A stretch of DNA of 64,000 nt from a virus (lineage: Duplodnaviria; Caudoviricetes), in the IMG/VR virus record IMGVR_UViG_3300013121_000022, positions 1 through 64,000 of that record, one strand, 5' to 3'. Made by a program: the position numbers and the translations under genes. The notes under the pieces are model-generated. The model was given only the letters and a program-made list of their open reading frames with translations, made no database searches and was not told where the DNA came from. Of this stretch, positions 12,301-52,384 are shown one piece after another. Position 1 is the first letter of the stretch. Each line of letters begins with the position of its first letter.

Positions 12301-12674
12301 CCGGAAAATTGTGGGATGCAAATAACAATCGGCCAATGACTGATGCGGAAATTGAAAAGAATGCAACTGCCGAGTGGTGGAGTGGGCCAACTCGTAACCA
12401 GATGAAACAAATTAAAACTCCGATGAAAAAGATCAACGGTGTATGGGAATTTGTAACTCAACAAGCCGAATCCGCAAAACCTGCATCTAAAACGCCAACT
12501 GATGCCGTTGCGTATTTCACCAAATTGTTTAGTGACCTTAATATTGATATTCAAATTATTGAAACCGATCCTAATGCACCCAATATGCACTCAGCTTATG
12601 CATCACGATATGGCGGATATGGAAATACACCGTATGAAGATATTATGTACGCACGAGCAGGATTAAATAACTAA
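9363..12674 (+). CDS. tagged multidomain cargo protein with two ADP-ribosyltransferase-like domains
   Basis: Start refined to ATG 9363; tag KHLRGTQFDHDQSSHG at 9411; MYHG...GYGIYTT...ARGY...AGY...LIVLDP (PARP/ART-PolyVal-like); MIRAGGLWAR...YGNITLV...PEVYVPGGV (DarT/DUF3626-like, weaker). Confidence 0.6.
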   Translation: MTFYDPLTSILRSKIKKHLRGTQFDHDQSSHGGGQIGHVSTPAVSSAPASGKGNKRSIPYPVKPTVLSSVTPQVTLSGVAASNVPFSPATQPLPVFTGKPGSKSNEAFDSLAKIQNEINQAVANGTPPNMTNIRQFTREFNKARMNLTTYYTDKKRQAKWLAANPGQSLPNPLSVGWANMPTEVIGPREHYSMLLDDLQAAIGQGKQVWLVREFGNQVPPVIPGMANAVGTPVNTTPFEPWKYDVPQFINTSRATSMNAYNALGTMQHEINKAAASGQAIDAAIYKDMRTEAATNLKNMKWIAQKLTTQEANGTSKVNPNWNAKIATDSYNHYNKILNILDQAALYDSSSDSFGGPPQLVWAVYEFGEGIDLPNIPGLDIGQTQRPPTGLSVTFAANTPTPPQSAPATASPQSTIDLRKWGGIKPQKEVFLTPGVANPLNGKFTPDPRAYTEAQAAPDLDHSAAFDMHYEGPTGEIVTMYHGVSSGLTSALKNGVRAGDPAGNNVSGYGIYTTNSVSTARGYTGTGSDGGMLALEVHTGRTIHINDLRRNILPAWRTQNPNRASKMHSSEQERQAAMDAGYSTIAWSYSGGSETTLIVLDPARARILGVYDSSSNPQTVKDYTDQILNQPASFVSPKLPKSTLATPQTIGYRKSPSTAQTYARNTNVDAPPGIPLSDKAYQELQELAKARQNNPSLQSAFKSNIAAARSLISNLVPIRTMPDTAILENMIRAGGLWARDSMPAVASALRASGDKNAISAADTLDKVYNSPLFNPSDAQLGLTKVAQLAYGPPMRNARMSGYGNITLVGKKGLLQKPGVKGNTTSVSAYGGGQAGATIDKQAFDDHVHDTNSFKEVMAQRLAMGMIQPFVSSNGKIDELHTPKSGKILSPDDYISQAPMFTSETPEVYVPGGVAMSEFSHLLIEKGTQHMIDTPAKPAVPEKTAPTLTRDNQGTIETMVADKYVSFESQATITDRQGNTRAGKLWDANNNRPMTDAEIEKNATAEWWSGPTRNQMKQIKTPMKKINGVWEFVTQQAESAKPASKTPTDAVAYFTKLFSDLNIDIQIIETDPNAPNMHSAYASRYGGYGNTPYEDIMYARAGLNN

Positions 12675-14701
12675 TGTACAAACTCGCCACAATCACAGAT
12701 GGTAATAAAACCATACAGGTTCAAATTAATATTTGTAGCACTTGTCGATTTTTTATCGATCCGCCAATGATGCCGCCAAACACTGAACGTCGATGCGCCA
12801 GACCCGCGATTACTCAGGATGGATATATGCATTACATTGCGTATGGCGGATGTCCAGAGTGGCAAGCAGGTGTTCCAATTGGTCATGATTTACCCGAAAA
12901 ACCTATATGGTTAACCATGCTTGAACGAGCGGGACTATCCGATGGTCTTGGTGTACACGGTGTATCAGTCACAATTGACTCGAATCCGTCCAATGGCGAT
13001 CAAGATCACGACTCGCAATATGATTTGCCGAGCGAATATGCACAAGCAAATAAACCAAAAGGTAATCTATTCAAGGCCGTGAAAGATAAACTATTAAAAC
13101 ACGATCATAAAAACGGAGCTCCCCAATCTGTTCACGATCCAACAAAGGGAGTATCAAAATTTAAGATTGGTGAAGATGTAATTCACGCTGTGTATGGCAA
13201 GGCCAATATCGTAAACATTTTTCAGAATGGCCGAGCAATGATTCGCTATACTGCCAGCGATGGAAGCGATGATTACAAAGCGGTAGACGCCAGCGAGCTC
13301 AAGTCTCAATACCAAACACAATACACTAACACGCCTGCTATTCCAAAATTTCCGCCAAAACAAAACAATCTGTTTGGTCATTCGTGGGCGGCGCTAAATC
13401 CCGATCCAAATATGAACAAGCCAAGTAAACGGGACATTCCGGGAAAGAAACCTGACTCGATCACTCAAATCGGAAAGTCAAAAAATGTTTACAAGGTATC
13501 ATTGGAAGGAAAAGACTATATTTACAAGCCCCGCTATGAGGAAGATGACGTTAAGGGAGATCATTACGCCGATTCTAACTTGTGGCAACGCGAAATTGCG
13601 GCTTACGAAATAGATCGAGCACTTGGTTTAGGAATCGTTCCCAAAACAATCAAAGAATCTATTGCCGGAAAAGGGCCGGGTTCGCTTGCCGAAGTTGTCT
13701 CTGGCTTTACACCCGCTCAAACAGGTGACAACACGCTTATCGATAATGGAGAAAGTTTTGCGGTCTTGGATGCACTTACATTACAAAGCGGACGCGAATG
13801 GGGATGGGGTAAAGTTGGCACTCATGGATACGCTACCGGAAATGGTCAGTCGTTTCTGAGAGCTTCACAAGATGAAAAAGGGAGAGGTTCGCCCTTTCAA
13901 AAGAAATACGCCGGACAACCAATTCCCGACGCAATTTTGACTAAGCTCCGATCACTTACCAACGAGCAATTCAACGGATTCATTCCGGCCAGCGTCGATC
14001 CAAACATCAAAGAACAAGCAAACCTGAATTTCACCTACATGCGAGATACCGGACTGATTCCGCCTCCATTATCTGGCAAGTGGTGGTTAGACCCGGGAAA
14101 GAAATTGGATGCATATATCTCAACATTTAAGCAACCATTTGCCGATGCAATGCAAAAACTTAAATCGGTATTACCCAACGCCCAAGTAGACGGAAGACTT
14201 AAAACAGTCGACTCGCTTGTAAGAGATTCAAAACATCTGAAAGTCGATCCACTTAAATTAGGTGATGTTGCTGGTACGCGGGTTATTGTCGAAGACTTTG
14301 ATGCACAAAAAGATGCGGCCAAAAAAATCCGCTCAGCGTTCAATATTACGGTGGATCGATCTCTTGGATTAAAGGGTGCAGGATCACCAACAGAGATCGA
14401 TTACAAGGACAGCGCCGGATACAAAGCTATTCACATGATCGCCAGAGATGGAGATGGAACAAAACCAGTCGAAATTCAAATCAGAACCAAGCGACAAAAT
14501 GTATTGGGCGAATACATGCACGATGTCTTTATGTATCCTGAATTCGAGACGGATAAAGCATTTAATGATTATGTTCAATCAATGGGAGATCATTATTATC
14601 GACTTGATCAAGGATTACAATCGACTTCGCCTAAAGCCCCGCCAATTGCCAAGAAATACCCGAAAGGCGAATTGCCGGACGATCCACTTAATACAAAATG
14701 A
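12674..14701 (+). CDS. tagged cargo: Cys-rich N-term, degenerate HipA/PI3K-like kinase, RelA/SpoT small alarmone synthetase
   Basis: Variant tag KHDHKNGAPQSVHDP at 13097; YKP...REIAAYEIDRALGLGIVPKT; GRLKT..S...DVAGTRVI...GYKAIH...EIQIRT. Confidence 0.8.
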   Translation: MYKLATITDGNKTIQVQINICSTCRFFIDPPMMPPNTERRCARPAITQDGYMHYIAYGGCPEWQAGVPIGHDLPEKPIWLTMLERAGLSDGLGVHGVSVTIDSNPSNGDQDHDSQYDLPSEYAQANKPKGNLFKAVKDKLLKHDHKNGAPQSVHDPTKGVSKFKIGEDVIHAVYGKANIVNIFQNGRAMIRYTASDGSDDYKAVDASELKSQYQTQYTNTPAIPKFPPKQNNLFGHSWAALNPDPNMNKPSKRDIPGKKPDSITQIGKSKNVYKVSLEGKDYIYKPRYEEDDVKGDHYADSNLWQREIAAYEIDRALGLGIVPKTIKESIAGKGPGSLAEVVSGFTPAQTGDNTLIDNGESFAVLDALTLQSGREWGWGKVGTHGYATGNGQSFLRASQDEKGRGSPFQKKYAGQPIPDAILTKLRSLTNEQFNGFIPASVDPNIKEQANLNFTYMRDTGLIPPPLSGKWWLDPGKKLDAYISTFKQPFADAMQKLKSVLPNAQVDGRLKTVDSLVRDSKHLKVDPLKLGDVAGTRVIVEDFDAQKDAAKKIRSAFNITVDRSLGLKGAGSPTEIDYKDSAGYKAIHMIARDGDGTKPVEIQIRTKRQNVLGEYMHDVFMYPEFETDKAFNDYVQSMGDHYYRLDQGLQSTSPKAPPIAKKYPKGELPDDPLNTK

Positions 14702-15381
14702 TGCGATCTAAAGTATTGCTTGCTCTAAATAAACACAATCCCGGAGAACATGATCAACTTACTCACGGCAACCGATCTGCGCCTATGGGACGAAACATAG
14801 AATTCGGACGCGGAGTTGACGAAGAAAAAATATGGCTCAACCCCGAACCATACACAACTAGCGGCGAAGAATCGGATGCGGGATCATGGGGAACAAATCT
14901 TGGGTTTGAACCGCCCACATACTCAAGTAAACAATTGGAGTCTCTGGCGATTTATCAGGGCGCATACTATAGAGGAATAAATGCATCACTTCGCAACAAT
15001 ACGCCAACAACTTACAAGCCATTTATCGATGCGATAGACTCAATGATGCTTGCAACTTCTGAACCAATAACGGTGTACAGAGGATTGTTGCTACAGGATA
15101 AGGCACAGCGCGAAAATTTCAAAAAAGGAAAAAGATTTACGGATAGAGGATATTCGTCAACCAGCATTAACAAAAGAGTCGCTCAAAAGTTTGCTCCGCC
15201 CGAAAATCCACGTAGCTTGACTATGAAAATTCATGTTCCCAAAAAAGCAAAAGCACTGCCAGCGTTCCTTATCAAGAACGTCATGAATGAAGACGAAATT
15301 ATCTTGTCCCGAAACACCACTTACGAAGTCATCAGCGATATTGATGCTGACGGACAATTTGAGGTCAAGGTAGTATCATGA
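14698..15381 (+). CDS. tagged cargo: VIP2/C3-type (R-S-E) ADP-ribosyltransferase
   Basis: Tag KHNPGEHDQLTHG at 14731; YRGINASLR, VYRG, YSSTS, EDEIIL (ExE). Confidence 0.88.
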   Translation: MMRSKVLLALNKHNPGEHDQLTHGNRSAPMGRNIEFGRGVDEEKIWLNPEPYTTSGEESDAGSWGTNLGFEPPTYSSKQLESLAIYQGAYYRGINASLRNNTPTTYKPFIDAIDSMMLATSEPITVYRGLLLQDKAQRENFKKGKRFTDRGYSSTSINKRVAQKFAPPENPRSLTMKIHVPKKAKALPAFLIKNVMNEDEIILSRNTTYEVISDIDADGQFEVKVVS

Positions 15382-16226
15382 TTAACGATAGATTTGTAGT
15401 AAAGGCCGACGATCTGGAATTTGAAACAACCAAACATTTAGGGCCACACAATCACCCGAATGGTACACCCCAATCTGTACATGGCAATCATGGGGATTTG
15501 AAAATAATTGATTCTACAGAGGCCAAAAAACAGGTTGAGAATTTTATGAAAACCGTTCCGGCGGAAACCATGAAAGAAATCAATGCCGTTCGAGATCGAG
15601 TGCGCTTTGGAATGACAACTACTGCAACCCACAGAAATCCAGTCACACGCGAGTGGTATCCAGACCGATCTGCATTACATGAAAAAATAATCGAATCGTT
15701 TTTTGAGGGCAAACAACCAGTCGAAAATCCAGAAATGATTTTTTTGGGAGGTTTACCCGGAAGCGGAAAAACAAGCGCAATGCGCGGACGGATGGATAAT
15801 TACGTAGTTTTAGATGCTGATGAAGTTAAAAAACAATTGCCCGAATATGAGGGTTGGAACGCTCCATTGCTACACGGCGAATCGGCCATTCTCGCTCAAA
15901 TGGTTTTTGATAAAGCTATTCAAGGCGGATATAATATAGTCAATGATGGCACACTGCGAAACAAAGACCTTGCCCTAGATTTATTGACACAGGCAAAACA
16001 AGCAGGCTATTCGACAAAAATTGTATTCGTAGGTGCAACAATCAAAACCGCCCTATCCAGAATGCTTAAGCGATTCAAGGAAACATCGCGCTTTATCGAT
16101 CCGGCATTTTATGTTGCAGTCGCTGGTAATCCAGCGAAAACATTTCACACAATCAAGGACATGGCCGACGCATATGAAGTATGGGACAATAATGGCGACA
16201 AGCCTACACTCATGGAGTCGACATGA
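15378..16226 (+). CDS. tagged cargo: zeta toxin-family P-loop kinase
   Basis: Variant tag KHLGPHNHPNGTPQSVHG at 15432; GGLPGSGKTS, LDADEVKKQLPEY, HGES, NIVNDGT. Confidence 0.88.
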   Translation: MINDRFVVKADDLEFETTKHLGPHNHPNGTPQSVHGNHGDLKIIDSTEAKKQVENFMKTVPAETMKEINAVRDRVRFGMTTTATHRNPVTREWYPDRSALHEKIIESFFEGKQPVENPEMIFLGGLPGSGKTSAMRGRMDNYVVLDADEVKKQLPEYEGWNAPLLHGESAILAQMVFDKAIQGGYNIVNDGTLRNKDLALDLLTQAKQAGYSTKIVFVGATIKTALSRMLKRFKETSRFIDPAFYVAVAGNPAKTFHTIKDMADAYEVWDNNGDKPTLMEST

Positions 16227-16609
16227 CCTACGATCTAAGTTTTAATACTGAACCAGATGATATTCCCTTACAGGAAAACTATCTGCAAGCACTAAGGAGT
16301 CATAACATGACAACAAACATCAAAGATTCCTCTGTAGTCCGAAGGTTACAGAGCATCGAACCCAAGCAAGAAGATTTATCAAAAAGCGTTCTGCTTAACG
16401 AGAATGAAATGATTTTGAGAGGCGAACACGTGGAAGTGTCCGCCAAAGACAATCACGCTCAACACATTGCTTCACACCTATCCATCAAAGGCCAAGTTCT
16501 ATCGAAAACATTGCGCGGATCAATGTCCAGTGATATTTTAGAAGCACTTGAACATCACATTGAAATGCACAAAGCGGCAAAGCAAGGTCAAGACCCAAAA
16601 AAAGTGTAA
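16223..16609 (+). CDS. hypothetical protein; may extend by -1 frameshift to 16950
   Basis: GGAG RBS, ATGA overlap; ends at a slippery A-run plus hairpin. Confidence 0.7.
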   Translation: MTYDLSFNTEPDDIPLQENYLQALRSHNMTTNIKDSSVVRRLQSIEPKQEDLSKSVLLNENEMILRGEHVEVSAKDNHAQHIASHLSIKGQVLSKTLRGSMSSDILEALEHHIEMHKAAKQGQDPKKV

Positions 16610-16701
16610 CTCCCTTAGATAGTAAGGGAGAGTCAAACACCAAGATAAAGGGCAACAGCAACACAACGGGAGCGGTTACAGCTGCGCCAAGCGATGCTTT
16701 A

Positions 16702-16950
16702 TTGCAATCGATTTATGATAAATACGCCAGAGTATATTCCGGCAAACTAATTGCGGCAGCTATCAAATCGTGGAAAGAAGGCGACTTTGAATCGGCGGAA
16801 TACAATTTTCAAAAATCACGCGATGGTTTTCAACGCGCCAAAAATCCGACTGAATGGAATGCCCTAGAAGCATGGCGTATTGCGGCTGAAAAGAAAATCG
16901 CAGGACAAACTGGCGAAAACAAAAATGAATCTGAGAACGAACAAGGGTAG
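16702..16950 (+). CDS. hypothetical helical domain; possible frameshift extension of 16223-16609
   Basis: Frame is open back to 16564; only a TTG start without a clear RBS. Confidence 0.5.
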   Translation: MQSIYDKYARVYSGKLIAAAIKSWKEGDFESAEYNFQKSRDGFQRAKNPTEWNALEAWRIAAEKKIAGQTGENKNESENEQG

Positions 16951-18028
16951 TGATCTGCGCCGATCAATTGAATACGTCTTGCAAAAGCACTTACCCGGTA
17001 AACACGATCAAAGCACTCACGGCAGAAGATCGAATGCTTCTGCCGAATCGGATGGGGTTGGCGGAGGCGGATCGCCGCTGGACTTTGAAGATCATGTCAT
17101 TCGCATTGAAACTGGAAGACATATTGAAAAAGTTACTCTTAAAAACGGCGAAACACGCGACAAGGAAATAATTGATTTTGATTATCAGCACAGTGCGGGA
17201 TCGAAATTAGATTCCAAGACCCTGCAACGGATCAAATCAGTCAAAGTTCCGCCCGGTGTGACCAACGTTCAAATTAGTCTCGATCCAAACGCCATGCTTC
17301 AAGCGGTATGGCAAGACAGCAAAGGTCGTGATGTGTATTTGTACTCGAAAGAACACGCTCGACAAGCGGCGGCTGAGAAATTTGAACGACTCAAAGACTT
17401 CAACGATGCTTTGCCGCAAATTCGCAAAACAATCGAATCAACTCTTTACGACAAAAACGCCGATCCCGAAACAAGAGATGTGGCCGCAGTGTTGTACTTA
17501 ATTGATAAGACTGGATTTAGAGTCGGATCGGATACAGATACGAAAGCGGAAAAGCAGGCATATGGCGCGTCAACACTATTAGGAAAACACGTCAAGGTTG
17601 ATGGGGACTCGGTTATATTTGACTTTGTGGGTAAAAAAGGCGTTGACATTCACAAACGCATTACCGATCCGATTATTGCCGACATTATTTCAACACGCAA
17701 AACAAAGAACTGGAGTCAAAAACTATTTCAGGTGTCCGATGATCAAGTTAGGACATTTCTAAAGCAGTTTGGTGATTTCAAGGTAAAAGATTTCAGAACA
17801 TGGAACGGAACAAACAAAGCACTTGAAGAACTCGCCAAAGTCAAGCGTAAGCCAAAGTCAGAATCTGAATTCAAAAAAGTCCAGCGAAAGATTGCGGACG
17901 CAGTAGCCAAGCACTTGGGAAACACTGCGTCAGTTTGTTTATCGGCCTATATCGATCCGTCGATTTGGGGAAGAATTCGCAAAGAAGAATGGGGCGCATA
18001 TGTCCCGCCAAGTCTCAAGGGCGACTAA
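16925..18028 (+). CDS. tagged cargo: type IB DNA topoisomerase
   Basis: Tag KHLPGKHDQSTHG at 16985; QAVWQDSKGR..YLY, GFRVG, FVGKKG, KDFRTW, LGNTASVCLSAYIDP (catalytic R,K,R,N,Y); start uncertain. Confidence 0.92.
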   Translation: MNLRTNKGSDLRRSIEYVLQKHLPGKHDQSTHGRRSNASAESDGVGGGGSPLDFEDHVIRIETGRHIEKVTLKNGETRDKEIIDFDYQHSAGSKLDSKTLQRIKSVKVPPGVTNVQISLDPNAMLQAVWQDSKGRDVYLYSKEHARQAAAEKFERLKDFNDALPQIRKTIESTLYDKNADPETRDVAAVLYLIDKTGFRVGSDTDTKAEKQAYGASTLLGKHVKVDGDSVIFDFVGKKGVDIHKRITDPIIADIISTRKTKNWSQKLFQVSDDQVRTFLKQFGDFKVKDFRTWNGTNKALEELAKVKRKPKSESEFKKVQRKIADAVAKHLGNTASVCLSAYIDPSIWGRIRKEEWGAYVPPSLKGD

Positions 18029-18032
18029 TGCT

Positions 18033-18230
18033 ATGCCTCAAAGCGAAGATCAATTACACGAGATATATGATAGGGCATGGAGTCGTACAATGAAAAAAAG
18101 CATCCTCAAACAAGAAGTTGAAAAGTCAATCAAAGATCAAACTTTGATGGATGACTACTTAGAAACAACCATATACGATGAACCCGCAACGTGGAATGAT
18201 AAAAATTCTGGAGATGATCCTGACGAATGA
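18033..18230 (+). CDS. small hypothetical protein
   Basis: Fills the gap; ATGA overlap with the next gene. Confidence 0.55.
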   Translation: MPQSEDQLHEIYDRAWSRTMKKSILKQEVEKSIKDQTLMDDYLETTIYDEPATWNDKNSGDDPDE

Positions 18231-19303
18231 AAATCAGAGATCGGATTCAAACTTTAATCAAACATCTTCCGGGAACACACAATCAACTCGATCATGGCCG
18301 ACGAAAAAACCAACCCGCTGTCCCCGAAACGTCAAATGTTGATTCGGATAATCAGTCGACTCAAGCCCCCACTCGCGCAAGGACAAACAGAAATCCAACA
18401 CTGGCTCAGGGTGTAACAGAAGAACAAGTCGAACAAAAAATAAAAGAGTGGTACATGAATTTTATGATGGAGGGAAATGAGGCGATTGGCGCACCCCAAG
18501 ACTGGTATGATCGCATGAATGAAATTAATGACGCAGAAAATTCAGATGATCCTGACTACGATCAAATCGAATCGGATCGAGATGAATTATATTCCGAAGC
18601 ATACGATCACTTGATGAAGGCGGCGGCTGACAAGATGTTTGAATTAGTAAATGACCCCGATACTGATTTAAGAATTCGCATCTCTCCAAACAAGCTTCAA
18701 CAATTAGTTGAAGATGGAAAATACAAGACCCTGCACGATGTTGTTGCAGAGCTTGATCCCGACGAAGAAATACCTAGCGATATAAATGGCGGCTGGAAAG
18801 ACAACGGACTTCGGCGCACTGCCGAAGATGGTATGTTGGGAGAAGATTCTGAACCAGTTTATGGATACATTTATCATCCCGAACTTGGTAATTACATGGT
18901 TGATTCAAGTCATACTATTAAAGATAGTCTTGATTCGTATGGTACATTAGATTTGATTCTTAAAGAAGATGTTCGTCAACGATCTACCTTTACAGTTGGC
19001 GATTCTTTGGCAATCAATGCTGATGACAACCTAGAATTTGATCCTAGACTTATTCCGTCTCGACTAGATAATCCGAGCGGACTATCTTTTCCGTTCAAAA
19101 TAGACGACAAACATCAAACCCTTGATCCCGATGTTTTATTTCAAGCAAACAGCGTTGCAGAGTTACAGACATACGTTGAAGCACAGATATTAGGTGGAGT
19201 GAAGCTATCCGATATAAAATCAGTCCTTGTGCGCGATGACAATATATCTAATGAACTAACTCAGCAGCTAATCGATGCTGGTATTGAAGTGGAGTATGAA
19301 TGA
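18227..19303 (+). CDS. tagged cargo: DUF3626-like putative ADP-ribosyltransferase
   Basis: Tag KHLPGTHNQLDHG at 18260; L..LV.DG.YK...R..AE...PVYG...YG...LK..V..R.TFT.GDS...YVEAQI.GGV.L.DI. Confidence 0.7.
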   Translation: MKIRDRIQTLIKHLPGTHNQLDHGRRKNQPAVPETSNVDSDNQSTQAPTRARTNRNPTLAQGVTEEQVEQKIKEWYMNFMMEGNEAIGAPQDWYDRMNEINDAENSDDPDYDQIESDRDELYSEAYDHLMKAAADKMFELVNDPDTDLRIRISPNKLQQLVEDGKYKTLHDVVAELDPDEEIPSDINGGWKDNGLRRTAEDGMLGEDSEPVYGYIYHPELGNYMVDSSHTIKDSLDSYGTLDLILKEDVRQRSTFTVGDSLAINADDNLEFDPRLIPSRLDNPSGLSFPFKIDDKHQTLDPDVLFQANSVAELQTYVEAQILGGVKLSDIKSVLVRDDNISNELTQQLIDAGIEVEYE

Positions 19304-20409
19304 AAAAATTAATAGCAACAGCAGGCGACAGAAAATTATATGCACTCGGCAGACGTATGGGAGTTGTTGAAAGCAACGGCAAGACATCTCCGCCTCAGTT
19401 TATTCCATCCATACTACGATCTGATGACTGGACTATGATTCCTGATAAAGTTGAAAAGGCCGGAAACTCCGAATCGGTACGACGCGGCTGGTTGAAGCGT
19501 AAGGCGCTTGAATCGGCCAATCATCTCAGGAGTTTTCAGACTGGATTAGCCGGAATTCCAGATCGGTTCACTCGTGCCGCTTTGCGCCAAAAGCAACAGC
19601 AACACGCTAAAGTAATTTCAGATGTATCAAGAGAGCTATCCAACATGCAACACAAAAAACTACGAGACATTGTAACGGGCAACGTTCAAAAACATTTGCA
19701 AGGCCGACACGATCAAAAGGATCATGGCCGCAAGCAATTTAGCTTTGCCAGTGAAGTGCAATCAGTAATAAATTCTTTGCCAGTTCTGGATACAACTTTT
19801 CGAGACAGCAGAACCAGCGATGCTTATGTACAATGGAAAAAAGATATAGTCAATGCATCCATGAATGGTCGGTTGCCTGAATTAGCGGAAGCATGGTCAC
19901 AGGGTTGGTCAAACACAATTCGCGAAAAGTTGACTCCATCTACAGTTAAGACATTGGACGCACTTACCAATGATCAAAACAGTCGATCTAACACCATCGT
20001 TCCCGAATCTCAACTCTCAGATATTTTGAGCGAGATTACTACCGATGGCTATTATGAAGGAATGAACTCTGTTCGACTAGATCGTCCTGAACTTATTAGC
20101 GAGTTTTTGACTCCGGCAAATCAAGCAATGAGGGCTATTGATTCGTTTTTGACTTCACTTGGACACCCCGCTGGTGTATTGAACGGACTACAACTAGATG
20201 ATTTTAGAGGAATAGACAAAATACATCGTGGTGTATATGACTCTGCGGGATATGATCGAAACAAAGTCGAGTCGGCGGTTGTGTTTGACGACATTAATTT
20301 TTCGGATTTATCAGCCTCTATTGGCAATTATTTAATGATGTACTACCGAGACAATCCAGAAGACATTCCGGCCAATTTCCGAAACTCGATTGTGATTGCA
20401 GGCGATTAA
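19300..20409 (+). CDS. tagged cargo protein, unknown function (two tags)
   Basis: KAGNSESVRRGW at 19456 and KHLQGRHDQKDHG at 19690. Confidence 0.75.
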   Translation: MKKLIATAGDRKLYALGRRMGVVESNGKTSPPQFIPSILRSDDWTMIPDKVEKAGNSESVRRGWLKRKALESANHLRSFQTGLAGIPDRFTRAALRQKQQQHAKVISDVSRELSNMQHKKLRDIVTGNVQKHLQGRHDQKDHGRKQFSFASEVQSVINSLPVLDTTFRDSRTSDAYVQWKKDIVNASMNGRLPELAEAWSQGWSNTIREKLTPSTVKTLDALTNDQNSRSNTIVPESQLSDILSEITTDGYYEGMNSVRLDRPELISEFLTPANQAMRAIDSFLTSLGHPAGVLNGLQLDDFRGIDKIHRGVYDSAGYDRNKVESAVVFDDINFSDLSASIGNYLMMYYRDNPEDIPANFRNSIVIAGD

Positions 20410-20410
20410 T

Positions 20411-21550
20411 ATGTTGCGTGACATTGTGGTTGATGTTTTGGAAAAAGGCGGCAAGGGTTCGGGTTTTTTTGCTCCCCGTCATCAAGGCCGCATTGGTCAG
20501 ATTGGCGGATCAACATCAGAAAATGTTGCCGCTCAGTCGTCGGGACGAAGAATTTATACTGAACTTCTGACAATCGACAATGACAAACTCAACGATCCAA
20601 AGGAAGTTGCCAGAGCTAATCGCTGGACTAAAAAACATATCAACATACTATTGAGGTCGGGCAAACAGAATGTCACAGTCAAAAAGATTAATGGAAACAA
20701 TAAAACCATTTTTACGATTGAATATGACATGCCAGTTGTTCAGGTTGATCCTAAACCGGATGAGTCGGTGTCCGAGAACGTTGATTTATACACTCCGGTT
20801 TCAGTCAAGAAAAAAATAACCGTACCGTCAACTGCCAAAACTGAGGCAGGCAAAAAAATATATACCAACGCACGAGAAATTATCGATGCTATTGATTCGA
20901 TTCATAAAATGCCAAGCAATGCCCCTGTCGTAAACGTACATGTTTATGGTTTGAGATCGGGATTTGGTGAATACCGATATGGGACAGATGTTTCTACAAT
21001 TCGTGTATCTTCTAAGAGAACAGAGAATAATGAAGCAGAAGAAACTATCACACACGAAATGGGACACTGGCTAGATCATGCGTTAGGAAAAAGATTTACC
21101 AAATACAAGCAATCTCTTTTTACCGATGTTGCCTATAAGCCGGACTCTAATGCCGATCCAGCGATAAAAGACGCAATAGATGATTGGGTAAATGCCGTTA
21201 TGAATTCTCAGGCGGTAAACGAACTCGCTCAAACCAAACACAAAAAAACCTTAACAAAATTGATTCGCACTAAAAACGCCGATGGATCGTTGACGGTGGA
21301 AAGTAAGAGCATCAATGTTGACAGGAAAATCGTTAGATATTTCTTAAGCACCGCTGAATTGTTTGCCCGATCCTATTCTCAGTATATTGGAACTAAAACC
21401 GGACGAAAGGGAATTATGGATGCAATCAATAAAGTGAAACAAGGAAGCGATCAAACTTTTTATCCTCAACACTGGACTGACGATGATTTCAAGCCCATAT
21501 ACCATGCTATGGAAAACATTCTCAAAACAGCAGGACTACTAAATGAATAA
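20411..21550 (+). CDS. tagged cargo: zincin (HEMGH) / LPD1-like domain
   Basis: Start refined to ATG 20411; alternative tag KGGKGSGFFAPRHQGRIGQIGGS at 20444; HEMGHWLD; YFLSTAELFARSYSQY. Confidence 0.75.
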   Translation: MLRDIVVDVLEKGGKGSGFFAPRHQGRIGQIGGSTSENVAAQSSGRRIYTELLTIDNDKLNDPKEVARANRWTKKHINILLRSGKQNVTVKKINGNNKTIFTIEYDMPVVQVDPKPDESVSENVDLYTPVSVKKKITVPSTAKTEAGKKIYTNAREIIDAIDSIHKMPSNAPVVNVHVYGLRSGFGEYRYGTDVSTIRVSSKRTENNEAEETITHEMGHWLDHALGKRFTKYKQSLFTDVAYKPDSNADPAIKDAIDDWVNAVMNSQAVNELAQTKHKKTLTKLIRTKNADGSLTVESKSINVDRKIVRYFLSTAELFARSYSQYIGTKTGRKGIMDAINKVKQGSDQTFYPQHWTDDDFKPIYHAMENILKTAGLLNE

Positions 21551-22289
21551 CGACATAATTAATGATCGGGTTGTCAAAATAGTTGATGGACGCGAAATCG
21601 AAACCGATTCACCGTCCATCGAAGATGTTTATCGGTCTTTGCGATCTCACGGAAAACTTCGCAACAAAGTTGCCGCAGTCATAAAACATTTGTCAGGCAA
21701 ACACGATCAATCAAGTCACGGAAATCGAAACGGCAGTAACATTGTCACAAAAAAAATTGGCAATGCAACCATATCTTTGAATCAGGGCGATCTCACTAAA
21801 GTTCCGGTAGACGCCATTGTAAATGCCGCCAACGATCATTTACAACACGGTGGTGGACTTGCTCGTGCCATTGTAGTACGTGGCGGAGATTCGATTCAAG
21901 ACGAAAGCGATCAATGGATTCAAGAAAACGGCAACCCATCTTCAACTCGTCCGGCAATCACATCAGCGGGATCGTTGCCAGCAAAAATGATCATCCATGC
22001 TGTTGCGCCTAGATGGAACGAAAAACAAGAACCACAGATGTACGAACAACTCAAGTCGGCTTACAGATCGGCGCTAGATGTCGCACATCAAAAAAACCTA
22101 AAATCAATTTCGTTTCCATCATTGGGAACTGGAATATTTGGAGTTCCAATTTCAGTCGGAGCAAAAGCCTCAAGAGAGGCAGTAGAAGATTTTGTTCGTG
22201 ACAATCCAGATTCTTCGTTGAAAGATATTCGCTTTACAATCTTTGACGACAAAACTGTGTCGGTTTTTGAAAGTGAGTATTCTAAATAA
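21543..22289 (+). CDS. tagged cargo: macrodomain (MacroD/YmdB-like ADP-ribosylhydrolase)
   Basis: Tag KHLSGKHDQSSHG at 21684; GDLT...DAIVNAAN..L.HGGG.A.AI...IIHAV.P...SISFPSLGTGIFG. Confidence 0.92.
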   Translation: MNNDIINDRVVKIVDGREIETDSPSIEDVYRSLRSHGKLRNKVAAVIKHLSGKHDQSSHGNRNGSNIVTKKIGNATISLNQGDLTKVPVDAIVNAANDHLQHGGGLARAIVVRGGDSIQDESDQWIQENGNPSSTRPAITSAGSLPAKMIIHAVAPRWNEKQEPQMYEQLKSAYRSALDVAHQKNLKSISFPSLGTGIFGVPISVGAKASREAVEDFVRDNPDSSLKDIRFTIFDDKTVSVFESEYSK

Positions 22290-22291
22290 TT

Positions 22292-23989
22292 ATGACTAAA
22301 CCAACTCTTGACAATAATATGTTGTCGTACTATGATTACATCGCTAATCATGGTAATTCTGCATTACGTAGAAAGGTTGGTAAACATTACATGGGACAAC
22401 ACGATCAAAAAAAGCATGGCCGAAAAACAACTCATCTGTTGGATTTTCCGGTAAACGCCAATCTCAGGGCTATTGCTGATAAATTTGACGCGGCTGGATT
22501 TAAGATTTACGTAGCAGGCGGAGCGGTACGAGATTATATTGTCGGTAAGACTCCCAAAGACTTTGACCTAACAACCGATGCTACTCCCACTGAAACCAAG
22601 TTTCTATTTGGTACAAAACAAATCAAGCCAGACTTGGGCGGAGAGTCGCATGGTACAGTTCGCATTCAAGAGGGGCATGAGATTTTTGAAATCACCACAC
22701 ATCGCACAGACGTTGAAACGGACGGGCGTCATGCAGTCGTGGCGTTTTCGCGATCCTTGACTGACGACTTGGCACGTCGCGATCTAACCTGTAACGCAAT
22801 GGCCTTAGACCTGAAAGATAAAAGGCTGTACGGTACATCTCCAGACGGATCGGCAGAAGACAATATCTCCGACATTGAAGATGGAGTCGTTCGATTTGTC
22901 GGCAATGGATCGGATCGGATTCGCGAAGACGCTTTACGTGGCTTACGAGCTATTCGCTTTGCAATCAAACTGAACGCAAAGTTGCATCCTGATACAAAGG
23001 CGGCGATCACTCAGGCAGTTGACAACGGATTAATTCCCGGCAATTTATCCGCTGAACGAATCCGAGATGAAATGATTCGCACTTTTGGCATGGAACATGG
23101 CGCAAACGCTATCCGATGGTACAAGGAAACCGGATTGCTGTTCGCTATCTTTCCTGAATTGAAGGCGTCTGAAAATCAATCGCAAAACAAACATCACGGT
23201 GATGTCAAGGTATTGGAGCACATCTTTCGCACTACTGAAACAGTCGATGTTCCGAAAACGGACTTGAAGTTGTTTAACGGTATGGCAACATTGTTGTTTG
23301 GACACAGGGACGAAAGCGAAGTAACAGAATCTGAGCGTATTGATACTGCCAGAGGAATTTTGCGCTTGACTATGCTGATGCATGACATTGCCAAACCACA
23401 AACAGCGGCAGAAAAACCCAACGCACCGGGTGAATACTCGTTTTTGACGCATGAAATCAAAGGAGCAGAAATTGCAAATGCCATTGCCAGACGTTTACGA
23501 ATTCCAAACACATTCGTTGACTTGATTACAATGGGTGTAGCCGAGCACATGGCAGTTCCTCATCCCGATGCATCCGATAGTTCAATCCGCCGATGGGCAA
23601 GACGACTGTATGACGAAAACAAGGGATTAGCCGAAAGCGGAATGAATTTGGTTGATTGGATGATGGCAGTACGGGCAGCTGATTGGGGATCGTTAGGACG
23701 TGAGCACAGCATTCAAGATATGGGCTTTGACAAAATCCGCTCAGTATTAACCGCAGTTCCAGTAACAACTAAACCGCCAGTTAGGGGTGAACGTATCATG
23801 TCGCTGACGGGATTGAGTCCTAAAACAAATGGTAAAATGATCGGACAAATTGTAAGACACATCGGTGAATTTTTGGATACCATGCCAGATGCACCCGATC
23901 ATGTTATCGATCAAGAGATTATGTCCGCGTTTCATTCTCTAACCGATAACAAGCCATTAGGAAAACAAGTCAAAGATGCACTCCAATAA
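22292..23989 (+). CDS. tagged cargo: CCA-adding enzyme / poly(A) polymerase family nucleotidyltransferase with HD domain
   Basis: Tag KHYMGQHDQKKHG at 22382; GGAVRD...KDFDLTT, EITTHR, DLARRDLTCNAMA, EDALRGLRAIRF, HDIAKP. Confidence 0.92.
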   Translation: MTKPTLDNNMLSYYDYIANHGNSALRRKVGKHYMGQHDQKKHGRKTTHLLDFPVNANLRAIADKFDAAGFKIYVAGGAVRDYIVGKTPKDFDLTTDATPTETKFLFGTKQIKPDLGGESHGTVRIQEGHEIFEITTHRTDVETDGRHAVVAFSRSLTDDLARRDLTCNAMALDLKDKRLYGTSPDGSAEDNISDIEDGVVRFVGNGSDRIREDALRGLRAIRFAIKLNAKLHPDTKAAITQAVDNGLIPGNLSAERIRDEMIRTFGMEHGANAIRWYKETGLLFAIFPELKASENQSQNKHHGDVKVLEHIFRTTETVDVPKTDLKLFNGMATLLFGHRDESEVTESERIDTARGILRLTMLMHDIAKPQTAAEKPNAPGEYSFLTHEIKGAEIANAIARRLRIPNTFVDLITMGVAEHMAVPHPDASDSSIRRWARRLYDENKGLAESGMNLVDWMMAVRAADWGSLGREHSIQDMGFDKIRSVLTAVPVTTKPPVRGERIMSLTGLSPKTNGKMIGQIVRHIGEFLDTMPDAPDHVIDQEIMSAFHSLTDNKPLGKQVKDALQ

Positions 23990-25031
23990 CACGTTTTCCG
24001 GCAAGGCATTCAAACACCTTGCCGGAAAACATGACCAATCTACACATGGGCGCAGAAATTTACATTCGACTGTTTATGCCGCACTGGAAGGATTGAAAGA
24101 GGGTGTTGCATACGTCGATCCCGATCCTAGTCCAGAGATCGCCAATCTAATCAATCGCATGAAAGAGATCAAAAACTCTGTAGGCGAAACTCTCCGAAGT
24201 CAAGAACAAGAATTGGCGAACATGGAACGCGACTTAAACAGTGTTCTCGAAAAGATGAACGACAACTCTAGGCAGTTCGGTAAAGTTTATAACGCATTAA
24301 AAAAACTAGACAGCACATCGGATGCATATATACAAAAGAACGCGGAACTAAATGAGATTGAAAAACAAATCGATCAACTCACGGATACTCGTGATGAACT
24401 CCTGATGGCGTTAGCCAACAAAAAACATGTAGCCAAAAATGCCCAAGCGGTTATTAATGCTGAAATCAGAAAACAACTGTTTCAACACGAGAATCCATTA
24501 AAGGTTGCGCCACGATCAAACTGGACTTCTTTTGGCGTGAAAGGTGGAGCGCAAGATGTGATACAGGAATTCTCTAAAATGCTGAATGGCAATAACGTTG
24601 ATCGAGACGAAGTGCTTTTAGACTTTTCAGACACCGGACGATCTTCATTTATCGATTTGAAAAACATGATTCGTCTAGCCGATCAAGACATGACTGCCGG
24701 AGGCGTAATTGCTCATGAATTTGGACACTGGTATGAAAACTCATCAAAAGGTGTTCAAGAGAAAGCGGTAAAATTTTTAGATAAGCGCCGAACTTCAAAA
24801 AAACTAGCACCGATAAAATTTTTTATTCCCGGAAGCACATACGACGCAAGTGAAGTTGGTTACGCAGATCATTTTATTCATCCCTATACTGGAAAGATGT
24901 ACTCAGACGGAGCAACCGAAATTGTATCCACTGGTTTCGAGTATATGTGGAACGATCCCATTGATTTTGCTGAACGCGATCAAGATCATTTTGAGTTCAT
25001 TGTCGATATTATGAAGAACGGAGGCGGATAA
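23976..25031 (+). CDS. tagged cargo: coiled coil plus zincin-like domain
   Basis: Tag KHLAGKHDQSTHG at 24012; HEFGHWYE; PYTGKMY...TEIVSTGFE. Confidence 0.75.
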   Translation: MHSNNTFSGKAFKHLAGKHDQSTHGRRNLHSTVYAALEGLKEGVAYVDPDPSPEIANLINRMKEIKNSVGETLRSQEQELANMERDLNSVLEKMNDNSRQFGKVYNALKKLDSTSDAYIQKNAELNEIEKQIDQLTDTRDELLMALANKKHVAKNAQAVINAEIRKQLFQHENPLKVAPRSNWTSFGVKGGAQDVIQEFSKMLNGNNVDRDEVLLDFSDTGRSSFIDLKNMIRLADQDMTAGGVIAHEFGHWYENSSKGVQEKAVKFLDKRRTSKKLAPIKFFIPGSTYDASEVGYADHFIHPYTGKMYSDGATEIVSTGFEYMWNDPIDFAERDQDHFEFIVDIMKNGGG

Positions 25032-26147
25032 ATGACTGTTGTTGTTTCGATTATGGGATCAACGGCTACGCTCAGTAATTACGTTTGGACATCAACGGAC
25101 AAATTGGTAGCCAACACACTGAATGCTTATGTGCCAGTTGGCGGATTCGCAACGCATATTCCCGATCCAGATTACGAACTCGCACAGGCTATGATAACAA
25201 AATTTGGTGGAAAGATTATTTCCAACACTCCCCCCGTTTGGATACCAGACTATCACCCACGAACTAGCCTGCTTGACAAAGTGCTGAAACATCTTCCGGG
25301 ACAGCACAACCAACTGGATCATGGTAGAAAACAGAACTCGACTGATTTGCGATCTGACGAATCGGCAGAGTGGATGTTAGAGTATCACGACTCAGCGACC
25401 CCAATATCAGAAATGTCGATGAATAGCGTGTACATTCTTGAGTTCGCTAATGGCCGCAAGTCAATCGGAAAAACAATACAGCCAAACAGACAATACGGAA
25501 TAGACGCTGACCATGTAAGACAAGAAGCAATCAATGAAGTAACAGTGGCGTCACTTGCAAAAATACTGAATGTCAACGTTCCTCCAACGGTAGCAGTCAA
25601 AGATTCGGGATCAAGCTACACTATTAAGCAGGAGTTTGTCGATGGAAAAAATGGCGGCGAACTCTATTCGCTGAAAAAGGTGTATCAACGACTTCAAGAA
25701 CATCCCGATCATTTATTCCGAGCGGCGATACTGGACTTCATTACCGGACAAACAGATCGGCACGTTGGCAATGTAATGTTTACTAAAACCAGCTTTGCGT
25801 TAGTGGATAATGGCAACACCACACAACCTAGTAACATGACCAACCTAAAACTATGCGTTGGTCAAGCTAGTACAGAAGATCGATCTTTGATGGTGTCAGC
25901 ATACAACAAAATCTTTGATGCTAATTCTGCTCCAACTAAAGAACAATTCAATATTTTGAACTCTGTAATCAAGGCAAAGCAGTTTCCAAAACCAATTCGA
26001 GCACGAGCGGAATTCCTTAAGCGTCTTTGGACAGAAACTAACAGCACACAGATTCCGCCAATGACCAAAGAATCAGACTGGATCAATACCGAATCCAAAC
26101 TATGGAATTCGGTGGTCGCTCAGTACAATAATGAGGACGACAAATGA
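25032..26147 (+). CDS. tagged cargo: HipA/PI3-PI4-kinase-like protein
   Basis: Tag KHLPGQHNQLDHG at 25287; EV..A.LA..L...VPPT, DFITGQTDRHVGNVM, LVDNG. Confidence 0.82.
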   Translation: MTVVVSIMGSTATLSNYVWTSTDKLVANTLNAYVPVGGFATHIPDPDYELAQAMITKFGGKIISNTPPVWIPDYHPRTSLLDKVLKHLPGQHNQLDHGRKQNSTDLRSDESAEWMLEYHDSATPISEMSMNSVYILEFANGRKSIGKTIQPNRQYGIDADHVRQEAINEVTVASLAKILNVNVPPTVAVKDSGSSYTIKQEFVDGKNGGELYSLKKVYQRLQEHPDHLFRAAILDFITGQTDRHVGNVMFTKTSFALVDNGNTTQPSNMTNLKLCVGQASTEDRSLMVSAYNKIFDANSAPTKEQFNILNSVIKAKQFPKPIRARAEFLKRLWTETNSTQIPPMTKESDWINTESKLWNSVVAQYNNEDDK

Positions 26148-26776
26148 TTAACATTGTTAGCAATCAATCGATCATAGCCACTTACGACAACGATATGGGC
26201 TGGTCGGGAAATCCGAATCAGGTTCAGGTTCTAATAGAAACATTTGGTAAGCAAACCGAAGATCAATATCTTCGGACGATATGTGGATCGTACTTGTTTG
26301 CCCAAAAATCAAAACAAACACTAATGCAGACGATCAAGCACCTAATCGGTCAGCACGACCAAAAAACACACGGTGGACTCAAAGGGACTTTGCTTAGTAT
26401 TCGTGAAAACATTGTCCAGAAGGCTCAGGAAGTCTTGGACGACTGGAAACCGAACGAAGATGGCTTTGACGAGTTATTCGGCTCAGGCGGGGCGTGTGAC
26501 GAGATTGCAAGGGTAATGAGTGACGTTATCACGGAACAAATACCAGACGCCGAGATATTTGATGGTGGTCAGGACGGTGATGATCACGCCTTTATCTATG
26601 TCAAACAAAACAATAAGGCTTTTGCGGTTGATATTCCGCCGGGCGTCTATGAAACAGGTGGGGGATACAATTGGAAAAAGAAAGAGGGAGTCAAGCTCGA
26701 ACCGGACGATGTAGTTATATATGAAATTGACGCCTCTGTACTTGAATCGGAATTTGACGATCACGATTACGATTGA
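26144..26776 (+). CDS. tagged cargo: possible papain/transglutaminase-fold enzyme
   Basis: Tag KHLIGQHDQKTHG at 26336; GGAC.EIA...DHAF...VDI suggests a Cys-His-Asp triad. Confidence 0.55.
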   Translation: MINIVSNQSIIATYDNDMGWSGNPNQVQVLIETFGKQTEDQYLRTICGSYLFAQKSKQTLMQTIKHLIGQHDQKTHGGLKGTLLSIRENIVQKAQEVLDDWKPNEDGFDELFGSGGACDEIARVMSDVITEQIPDAEIFDGGQDGDDHAFIYVKQNNKAFAVDIPPGVYETGGGYNWKKKEGVKLEPDDVVIYEIDASVLESEFDDHDYD

Positions 26777-26803: not shown

Positions 26804-27475
26804 ATGATGGACAGAAAAATAGACTACAAACAACTTGGAATTGATTTTGACTATCTCAAAGGACTTCCGTTAGGTGGTGGAGGTCGAGAGTGGCCTGCTC
26901 CCTGGGCGGTTGCCGCCAAGATATTATTCGTCAATGGATTTTCGGCCAGAGACATTGAAGACATTCTTCAAGGGCCAAAACGAATAACAATCTATTCATG
27001 GATCGATAAATACAAGTGGCAAGAAGAACGCGACAAGTACATGCAAGAGTTGGCCGAAAAAGCGTTAGTAGCCAGTCAAGAAACGCAAGTAGAGGTCAAC
27101 CAGCGACACTTAAAATCGCTTATTGCTATGCAGAATGCCGCAATCCTGCCAATCCTCAATAGGCAAGTTCAACCCAAGTCATTGGAAGGTACAATGACAG
27201 CGGCAATTTCGGCCATGCGAATGGAGCGTGACATTCTTGGACTCGCAGGTGGAACACCGGAAACAACCATTCTACAAGACAATCGTGTTCAAACGGTTTT
27301 GACATCATTGGACGGAATTCCGACAGATAAGTTGGAAGAATTTTTCGCCCTTCAACAAAAGAAAATGGAGTTAGACGGAGAGATCGCCAATCTAACTACT
27401 GAAAATAAAACGGACGATCATTTTGCAGGAGATGAAGAACATGACTCAATCATTGAAGCGACAGTTGCTGAGTAA
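26804..27475 (+). CDS. putative terminase small subunit (HTH)
   Basis: A...F..G.S...I...L......TIYSW...Y.W HTH followed by helical region; upstream of TerL; TATAAT at 26792. Confidence 0.55.
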   Translation: MMDRKIDYKQLGIDFDYLKGLPLGGGGREWPAPWAVAAKILFVNGFSARDIEDILQGPKRITIYSWIDKYKWQEERDKYMQELAEKALVASQETQVEVNQRHLKSLIAMQNAAILPILNRQVQPKSLEGTMTAAISAMRMERDILGLAGGTPETTILQDNRVQTVLTSLDGIPTDKLEEFFALQQKKMELDGEIANLTTENKTDDHFAGDEEHDSIIEATVAE

Positions 27476-51856: not shown

Positions 51857-52384
51857 ATGGGAAAACATACACCCGAATTTGAAAGGTGTGTAGAATCGGT
51901 CATGGAGTCTGGCAAAGACAAGTCCAGCGCATTCGCTATTTGTACCGCTTCTTTCAAAAAGGCAGGGAAACCAATTTTGAAATCACCACTCAAAAAGCAA
52001 GTTGAAGAAGTTTTGCAGAAACACCCAGGACACCCCGATCAAAAAGTACATGGTCATAAAGGTCGCGGTACATCTCAGAACGAATCGGCAAGTGCAACCA
52101 AACCATCGTCTAATAGCCCCAAGATCATTGAGTGGGAAAAATCGAAAGCAACAATCTCCAAACGAAATGATGGTGGTCACGACGTTGAATACAAGGGCCT
52201 GAAGGTTGAAATCAAACCTCATTCATTGGGCGGATTCATGGCGCACTTTAGACCCCCGCCAATTGGCGGCAAAAAATCGAATGAAATAACTTCAATGAGA
52301 CTCAACGGGCAAGACAATTTATTGCAATGGGCAAAAAGCACTCTTATTGAGTTCAGTCGAAACAATTTGTACGATAAAGACTAA
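51857..52384 (+). CDS. tagged protein with N-terminal RCV...AFAIC module
   Basis: FERCVESV...SAFAICTAS; variant tag KHPGHPDQKVHG at 52019. Confidence 0.75.
   Translation: MGKHTPEFERCVESVMESGKDKSSAFAICTASFKKAGKPILKSPLKKQVEEVLQKHPGHPDQKVHGHKGRGTSQNESASATKPSSNSPKIIEWEKSKATISKRNDGGHDVEYKGLKVEIKPHSLGGFMAHFRPPPIGGKKSNEITSMRLNGQDNLLQWAKSTLIEFSRNNLYDKD

Follow-up and report, generated by a model that had tools for sequence, protein, structure and literature searches.

Positions 1 to 64,000 of an uncultivated 172.5-kb virus record that carries direct terminal repeats (IMG/VR record IMGVR_UViG_3300013121_000022, Caudoviricetes) are the window analyzed here. In it, a row of overlapping genes encodes enzyme-like cargo domains marked by a short peptide tag, and several of these genes carry an additional N-terminal segment ahead of the tag. 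Our sequence comparisons indicate that the longer pre-tag segments very probably belong genetically with the cargo encoded just upstream. The explanation that we favor is that the row is a late operon encoding head-cargo effectors, a split form of the phage “polyvalent protein” wherein each gene would be tag-marked, and that these genes form cargo–partner cassettes in which the partner would act as an inhibitor. We assign this explanation as a whole a probability of about 0.5.

The tag has the consensus KHLxGxHDQxxHG and covers ~27 residues including a leader helix. Exact matches to the pattern [HP][DN]Q..HG occur 17 times in the window, all on the + strand, where the rough chance expectation is fewer than one in ~128,000 six-frame residues, and a hidden Markov model (HMM) of the tag identifies 21 copies. 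The array is an unbroken row of overlapping + strand genes from ~9.3 to 35.8 kb that ends at the genes for the large terminase (35829) and the portal (37323), wherein genes are named by their start coordinates. Sites resembling promoters or terminators show no enrichment within the array, which is consistent with a single long operon. Cargo domains identified among its products are RelA/SpoT-like (12674), C3-like ADP-ribosyltransferase (ART; 14698), zeta toxin (15378), topoisomerase IB (TopIB; 16925), a weak DUF3626 (18227), Macro (21543), CCA/poly(A) polymerase plus HD (22292), and the ART-PolyVal and LPD1 domains of a 1425-residue protein (29013).

The tag stands at the start, or within ~15 residues of it, in six genes (9336, 14698, 16925, 18227, 23976, and 50033). 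An earlier reading of the letters alone (the sequence-only reading) had noted that other tagged open reading frames (ORFs) begin with an unrelated stretch of 18 to ~140 residues, and we measured about 10 such ORFs with the tag HMM, counting the residues before the start of the HMM match. Their starts lie at the end of the preceding gene. An ATGA overlap is present at 15378, 16223, 18227, 19300, 26144, and 29013; 12674 and 51121 overlap the preceding gene by 1 nt, 21543 overlaps by 8 nt, and 25032 abuts the preceding stop. These arrangements are compatible with the translational coupling to the preceding gene that the sequence-only reading had noted. Some ORFs have an in-frame ATG, GTG, or TTG nearer the tag, and it might be argued that the pre-tag stretches are start-codon artifacts and that the real start is near the tag. 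However, the first ATG either overlaps the stop of the preceding gene or adjoins it, so that no intergenic gap is left, GGAGG and GAGGA motifs precede 25032 and 26144, the segment of 25032 belongs to a family of real small proteins, and the segments are under purifying selection (see below), such that we consider an artifact of this kind scarcely credible.

A megablast comparison of the array with isolated phages gave no match. By the large terminase (TerL), one useful relative was found (L002; 58% identity, 12.4 kb), and the tag patterns had no match in the 81 loci compared. A wider set was obtained from IMG/VR contigs with a degenerate DNA pattern for K-H-x2-G-x-H-D-Q-x2-H-G, which yielded at least 117 stretches. 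All census counts given here refer to tag-bearing loci among the matches listed, with genes called by a simple gene caller that reproduces the genes of the window. These loci hold 460 tag copies, which occupy one strand per locus without exception, and a pre-tag stretch of 20 to 120 residues is present in 87 of their 272 complete tagged genes.

We compared 93 such units by their segment, by the last cargo of the upstream gene, and by their own downstream cargo. Homologous segments could be paired between loci in 110 cases, and the homology extends to the upstream cargo only in 78, to both cargos in 30, and to neither in 2. Thus, the upstream cargos are homologous in 108 of 110 pairs and the downstream cargos in 30 of 110, against background rates of 8.4% and 5.1%, respectively. 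Within 12 segment families, the corresponding counts are 138 and 41 of 140 pairs. The proposal of the sequence-only reading that the exchangeable unit runs from tag to tag across a gene boundary is borne out by these counts, and the contrary pattern, wherein segments vary with their own downstream cargo alone, is found in 0 of 110 pairs. Pre-tag segments that keep to the same upstream effector family in other phages, which that reading had suggested looking for, were found in this census, and homologs of the 25032 segment follow the same upstream domain in six of seven metagenomic contexts (see below). The segments evolve under purifying selection (median ratio of nonsynonymous to synonymous substitution rates, dN/dS, of 0.28 for 74 pairs), and their conservation equals that of the cargo, which argues that they are coding modules rather than drifting linkers.

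Whether a module is present depends on the family of the upstream cargo (chi-square p = 8e-34). C3-like ARTs (n = 42) are followed in 37 cases by a tag without a module. In contrast, a small module comes next after 24 of 26 SopF-like cargos (DUF3626 is the family of the effector SopF; PMC6682159), comprising 19 modules fused before the next tag and 5 stand-alone ORFs of 58 to 66 residues. In two more cargo families, a module is next in 22 of 24 and in 14 of 14 cases. A small-alarmone-synthetase-like (SAS-like) cargo, which matches SaSAS (8vx3, E 1e-15), is always followed by one conserved module of ~75 residues, which has an autonomous predicted fold (predicted local distance difference test score, pLDDT, of 92) and is fused N-terminally to an untagged XkdF-like prohead protease in 17 cases, precedes a tag in 3, and stands alone in 4. 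A different module of ~80 residues always follows the zeta cargos of other phages, fused to the protease in 8 cases and alone in 2. We rejected the assignment of this post-zeta module to the protease; in both loci with a free module (L118 and L162), the protease is encoded upstream of zeta and the module is still found after zeta, and therefore the module goes with zeta. Among the XkdF-like prohead proteases (L089, L096, L100, L114, L158, and others), the N-terminal 75 to 90 residues vary with the upstream cargo, and we therefore read such “protease” genes as fusions of a cargo partner and a protease.

The cargo–partner boundary is retained in 24 of 24, 10 of 10, and 23 of 26 cases, whereas the boundary between the partner and the next gene is often lost. 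Likewise, the partner-bearing cargo domain is the last in its polypeptide in 23 of 26 SopF-like, 10 of 10 zeta, and all SAS-like proteins. On a tree of the SopF-like cargos, the five kinds of following sequence need 4 changes, which is the minimum; shuffled labels need 13.4 changes on average, and 0 of 200 shuffles are as low. Partners of at least four unrelated types are found with this one cargo family, and 58 of 91 partners are free-standing and untagged.

Linkage of this kind might also reflect pure hitch-hiking, wherein recombination takes place at the tags as the only conserved sequence and the segments are unrelated to the upstream cargo or are mere N-terminal extensions. The modules are bounded by tags in all listed loci, and two segments of the window described below (29013 and the Zn ribbon of 27432) illustrate that a segment, whether upstream-linked or free, does not have to involve a toxin. 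However, the same cargo–partner pairs occur without a tag array, where the cargo domain is carried by a MuF protein or by 2′-5′ RNA-ligase-like proteins or where the next gene is an untagged protease. The dependence of module presence on cargo family, the purifying selection on the segments, and the fact that partner type tracks deep cargo clades are also at odds with hitch-hiking, which we consider quite unlikely.

Occurrence of a pair outside tag arrays is documented for the segment of ORF 25032. The tagged gene 23976 (23976..25031, + strand) ends in an HExxH zincin-like peptidase domain (~24573–25028; alignment A5 with invariant H48, E49, H52, and E55). The next gene begins with a 74-residue partner module (25032..25253, + strand; folded core of residues 1–66), followed by the tag and an enzyme-like cargo domain (25254..26147, + strand) that is homologous to L002 3–986 (E 3e-9). 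When 80 residues of this segment alone were used in a full HMMER/phmmer search of 1.84 billion representatives, 43 proteins were recovered at E ≤0.001, and ~38 of these are stand-alone proteins of 74 to 87 residues (~76) that align end to end. Genomic contexts were looked up for nine homologs, and seven distinct contexts were usable (L208 and L209 represent one); one place without DNA and one 1-kb fragment without an informative upstream gene were left out. In six of the seven (L202–L206 and L208/L209), the immediate upstream gene ends in an HExxH domain of the 23976 type (A5 HMM, E 5e-40 to 5e-10), and in the seventh (L201), this domain is encoded two genes downstream of the homolog. The remainder of the upstream proteins differs, and includes a MuF head protein (L203) and 2′-5′ RNA-ligase-like proteins of 810 to 940 residues (L202 and L206). 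Because the same HExxH domain is upstream while the rest of these proteins differs, we conclude from sequence comparison that this domain and the ~76-residue protein are a conserved two-gene cassette, the second gene of which is fused in the window to the tag of the next cargo.

The stand-alone homologs end in (V/I)Y, which aligns to Y73 of the window protein, ~6 residues before the tag leader. An AlphaFold2 model of the segment (mean pLDDT 88.5) is confident to about residue 66 and weak beyond. The end of the homologs just ahead of the tag leader and the end of the fold near residue 66 are indirect hints of cleavage at the tag. Small proteins that follow the HExxH domain (A7 family; L191, L111, L133, and L117) all end in a hydrophobic residue plus Tyr (..VY/..IY), and this ending is kept even where the rest of the proteins can barely be aligned. 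The conserved C-terminus adjoining a peptidase could be a product-like or inhibitory tail. Small HMMs built from the array loci did not detect the 25032 segment significantly, and pairwise shuffle tests or the large phmmer search were needed. A scan of viral contigs with the 25032 cargo as a single protein found just one weak locus.

The next gene carries a 54-residue partner module before its tag (26144..26305, + strand). This segment matches a stand-alone 78-residue ORF of L002 (tblastn E 0.001; z 9.4) that comes after a homolog of the 25032 cargo; a word-based search with the segment gave nothing.

Gene 18227 (18227..19303, + strand) encodes a tagged SopF/DUF3626-like, ART-like cargo (PF12294, weak match). 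In an alignment of 24 relatives of this cargo (A1), Arg, Ser, and Glu positions are invariant, which we interpret as an ART pattern of the R-S-E type. ORF 19300 opens with a partner-type segment of ~55 residues (19300..19464, + strand) that resembles the “type B” modules found after SopF-like cargos (z 5.7, 5.2, and 3.6 versus shuffles), and the SopF-like tree places the window cargo within its B/E half. A predicted complex of the SopF-like cargo (A1) and the 19300-type segment (A2) scored under the mark, which counts neither way. The isolated Nodularia phage vB_NspS-kac65v151 (L200) encodes a DUF3626 protein (gp019) followed by a small protein (gp020), without the KHL tag and with weak similarity (z 3.6). 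In this phage (record positions 10743–14688), two large genes after the portal gene are each accompanied by an overlapping small ORF (gp017/gp018 and gp019/gp020).

One further segment is a Zn ribbon (27432..27653, + strand; PF23783; 74 residues before the tag) that follows a small-terminase-like gene, 26804. The Zn ribbon comes after the terminase-like gene in both the window and L002, and the rest of the protein differs. Gene 26804 (26804–27475; PF06056) lies within the effector row, far from the large terminase gene at 35829. It is flanked by tagged effector genes on both sides, and the gene order is identical in L002.

Comparison across loci thus defines a cassette in which the cargo domain is last in its polypeptide and is followed, with overlapping stop and start, by a small autonomous partner of ~45 to 130 residues. 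In the window, partner ORFs without their own stop run in frame into the tag of the next cargo at 19300, 25032, and 26144, and free-standing ORFs occupy the partner slot at 16223 and 18033. The partner is most likely a cognate inhibitor (an immunity protein or antitoxin) of the upstream enzyme that would be supplied one-to-one by translational coupling. Such a supply of inhibitor could allow the phage to make toxic cargo late in infection. The simplest account of the fusion to the next gene is that it is tolerated; the tag would also work internally, as in multi-tag polyproteins (29013 has five tags), and an N-terminal extension would then be harmless. By analogy with other systems, processing at the tag would free the fused partner. 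That the partner modules inhibit the upstream enzyme is itself an argument from analogy, and we place it slightly short of even odds.

Other roles for the modules fit the data less well. The segments could be C-terminal sub-domains of the upstream cargo that were split off by a stop/start during fission of an ancestral polyprotein. The window does contain an internal-tag polyvalent protein (29013, five tags), and three SopF-like cargos run without a stop into the next tag. However, these fused forms have a linker and not a partner type, and the catalytic domains are complete without the segment (the ART domain extends through the ExE motif and the last strands). Furthermore, the modules are predicted to fold alone at high confidence, a single cargo family is followed by several unrelated partner types, and it is the cargo–partner boundary, and not the other one, that is conserved. 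We therefore consider a sub-domain origin very unlikely.

The partners might instead be packaging or folding helpers that bind the upstream cargo and tether it to the next tagged protein or to the protease, wherein a noncovalent chain re-creates a polyprotein. Such helpers would be expected to show the same linkage data as inhibitors, and fusion to the prohead protease (25 cases) and to tagged genes would place the partner at the site of packaging. The Zn ribbon that follows the terminase-like gene also is a module linked to a non-toxin gene. However, the cargos have their own tag, which makes a tether needless, and tethering is impossible for the majority of partners that are free-standing and untagged. 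The near-constant retention of the cargo–partner boundary also speaks against helpers, and we regard this role as unlikely. Because there are several unrelated partners per cargo family, the cargo–partner boundary is conserved, and many partners are free and untagged, an inhibitor appears to fit better than a sub-domain, a linker, or a tether.

A bolder possibility arises because fusion to the head protease recurs. An inhibitor that is joined in frame to the tagged cargo after it, or to the prohead protease itself, could be co-packaged with its toxin and then cut off or destroyed by the head protease in the sealed procapsid, such that the toxin would be silent in the producing cell and armed only in the virion. 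We regard this scenario as doubtful.

Several observations weigh against inhibitor-bearing cassettes as a general explanation. Linkage alone could arise from recombination at the conserved tags. None of the 66 non-redundant partner modules or window segments matched a known immunity or antitoxin family. The likeness of the 25032 and 19300 segments to those of array loci is weak when taken alone, and the latter also was not significantly detected by the small HMMs from array loci. ORF 16223 in the slot after zeta is an orphan that is unlike the post-zeta modules of other phages, three SopF-like cargos run straight into the next tag via a linker only, and the gene upstream of the Zn ribbon is terminase-like rather than a toxin gene. 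Some toxic-looking cargos, namely RelA/SpoT (12674), C3-like ART, and the CCA/HD enzyme, have no partner. The segment of 29013 is conserved at the N-terminus of L002 2736 (z 13.3), where the upstream gene and the downstream cargo are both different. Finally, a hairpin in the 21543 segment resembles that of 15378, and yet its upstream cargo (20411) is unrelated to the ART encoded before 15378. As a rule for every segment, the proposal of the sequence-only reading therefore holds in part: support is strong for 25032, good for 26144, and moderate for 19300, whereas 29013 and the hairpin of 21543 do not follow it, and the Zn ribbon of 27432 stays with its upstream gene, which is not a toxin gene.

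Further comparisons gave no known relatives of the modules. Searches with the post-zeta module profile (A3) and with profile A4 against PDB and Pfam sequences returned chance-level rows only. Fold searches with the post-SAS and 25032 modules gave no Foldseek match at E ≤0.001, and the best VIA-align Z scores were 4.5 and 3.5. The Tas1 immunity protein (6ox6_B) appeared in a Foldseek row at E 1.1, which is not significant, and was absent from the 50 rows listed by VIA-align.

The proposed cassettes resemble several known systems. In MuF toxins of temperate phages, a variable C-terminal domain is likewise followed at once by a small domain-specific ORF, and small putative immunity ORFs follow 89% of MuF toxin genes (Jamet et al. 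2017, PMC5576092). The protein IapK blocks the active site of the head-associated RelA/SpoT-like toxin Apk2 (PMC12226406). A link to MuF systems is provided by the stand-alone 25032 homolog of L203; its gene comes immediately downstream of one for a MuF protein with the same peptidase-like domain at its end. However, no array gene of the window matched the MuF domain (PF04233/PF06152). Here, the ~27-residue tag replaces the MuF domain, many cassettes are chained in one operon, and the partner, often without a stop of its own, continues in frame into the cargo gene after it or, in other phages, into the gene for the prohead protease.

The phage polyvalent proteins (Iyer, Burroughs, Anand, de Souza, Aravind 2017, PMC5512222) have the same domain repertoire (ART, ART-PolyVal, Macro, zeta kinase, zincin-like peptidase, and LPD1), and like them the window genes are located beside the terminase and portal genes. 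True multi-tag polyproteins are encoded in the window by 29013 (five tags, ART-PolyVal, LPD1) and 33262 (two tags). Unlike polyvalent proteins, most window domains are encoded by separate, overlapping genes, and the single-cargo genes of 12674–26776 correspond to a split form. Neither cargo-linked partner modules nor immunity for polyvalent proteins came up in a term search of the article by Iyer et al. (PMC5512222).

Polymorphic toxin–immunity cassettes also consist of a C-terminal enzyme domain followed by a fast-diversifying, family-specific small ORF with an overlapping start, and in them an N-terminal trafficking part, comparable to the tag, precedes unrelated variable cargos. As in the array, a short conserved motif opens the exchangeable toxin plus immunity unit of CDI/Rhs polymorphic toxin cassettes (Zhang et al. 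2012, PMC3482391). These systems differ from the array in that delivery would here be by a phage capsid and not by a secretion system, all units are apparently expressed, and the immunity-like part is fused to the next unit. Tandem orphan toxin–immunity units of the CDI/Rhs type also occur.

Similarly, in the epsilon/zeta (PezAT) toxin–antitoxin systems of type II, a zeta kinase domain has an adjacent small ORF. In the window, this ORF is downstream and not upstream and does not resemble epsilon/PezA, a capsid-type tag is present on the toxin, and the gene upstream of zeta encodes an ART. The capsid targeting sequence of phage T4 is a short peptide on internal proteins and Alt that is thought to be removed by the head protease. 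By analogy, the tag may be a short peptide that marks diverse proteins for the head. However, the tag sequence is unrelated to that of T4 and appears to work internally, and partner modules N-terminal to the tag have no T4 counterpart. We found no description of in-frame fusion of a partner to the next cargo or protease, or of a tag-to-tag unit that crosses a gene boundary, whereas cassettes of the toxin–immunity type are already known.

The ART, zeta, and TopIB genes of the array illustrate how the partner slot varies. Gene 14698 (14698..15381, + strand) encodes a C3-like ART (PF03496, E 1.6e-18) with the tag at its very N-terminus and no pre-tag segment. Its ART domain is complete through ExE and the last strands, and the idea that the segment of 15378 completes the ART fold was rejected on this basis. 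That segment is an 18-residue, hairpin-like leader, MINDRFVVKADDLEFETT (15378..15431, + strand), which is followed by the variant tag KHLGPHNHPNGTPQSVHG of the zeta-toxin cargo gene (15378..16226, + strand; PF06414, E 3e-29). Leaders of the type MNLDRFQYDSSxGLxLVxEKH open the gene after C3-like ARTs in at least 15 other loci in which the downstream cargos differ, and the 15378 leader is probably not a folded partner but a variant of the tag leader.

Both zeta and TopIB are followed by a small untagged ORF, in agreement with the sequence-only reading. The first encodes 128 residues (16223..16609, + strand) and has an ATGA overlap with the zeta gene. It had no homolog in a word-based search of 5.8 billion proteins and no Pfam or PHROG match at E up to 1, and a profile comparison with the post-zeta module of other phages (A3) gave a probability of 0.2%. 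The region between this ORF and the TopIB gene (16609–16925) is the sole sizeable gap (270–315 nt) of the otherwise overlapping array. It holds a doubtful 82-residue ORF with a TTG start (16702–16950), and the start of TopIB is uncertain (TTG at 16880 or ATG at 16925). The tagged TopIB cargo gene (16925..18028, + strand; PF01028, E 5e-31) is followed by an untagged ORF of 65 residues (18033..18230, + strand; 76 residues if started at 18000), the stop of which overlaps the 18227 start and which had no family match.

The remaining segments are less informative. ORF 12674 (12674–14701) follows the 1100-residue cargo gene 9336 and begins with a Cys-rich segment of ~135 residues (12674..13078, + strand; ~135–148 residues before the HMM match), for which we found no family match and, in a word-based search, no homolog. 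The segment is followed by the degenerate tag LLKHDHKNGAPQSVH, ~330 residues without assignment, and a diverged RelA/SpoT domain (PF04607, E 4e-12) that matches FaRel2 in the PDB at E 0.3 only. Unlike the SAS-like cargos of other tag arrays, this gene has no partner module downstream. The Macro-domain gene has a 37-residue segment with the hairpin INDRVVKIVDGREIET (21543..21653, + strand), which is absent from the Macro homolog of L002. The 1425-residue polyvalent protein begins with a segment of ~95 residues (29013..29297, + strand) that is an exception to the upstream rule; it extends to the motif RDENGQW, and the first KHL tag is 300 residues from the start. Pre-tag lengths are 19 residues for 22292, 22 for 51121, and 43 for 51857. 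The segment of 51857 (51857–51985) contains a C..V...G......A.AIC.AS motif that also occurs within a 427-residue protein of L183 (blastp E 5e-5), and it is a further candidate for a small mobile module. The shortest segments (15378, part of 21543, and 51121) look like alternative tag leaders and not partners.

Several genes have other short motifs in the position of the tag. In 19300, where 119 residues precede the KHL tag, the motif GNSxxxxRGWLKR (19453–19500) follows ~50 residues after the start (measured to GNSxxxxRGW). Others are GGKGSGFFAPRHQGRIGQIGG in 20411 (20440–20510), PGHPFRGNQY in 28228 (28480–28520), and NPDQPRDENGQWT in 29013 (29290–29330), and L002 has PAGSPKGGEFAPK and GQPGGGQWT. 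These non-KHL motifs of the window and L002 may be alternative tags.

Whatever the function of the partners, these findings correct gene-by-gene annotation, as a tagged gene often begins with what is a distinct protein belonging to the upstream neighbor. No known domain is present in any of the 66 partner families examined. If the partners are inhibitors, then the simple rule of assigning to each cargo domain all sequence up to the following tag would yield hundreds of new enzyme–inhibitor pairs from uncultivated phages, and Nodularia phage vB_NspS-kac65v151 offers a cultivable system in which the partner idea can be tested. The recurrent fusion of partners to the next cargo or to the head protease suggests that disposal of the inhibitor may be built into packaging. 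If the partners are inhibitors, the cassettes would also account for the ability of lytic phages to produce a dozen toxic effectors at a time when they still depend on the host.

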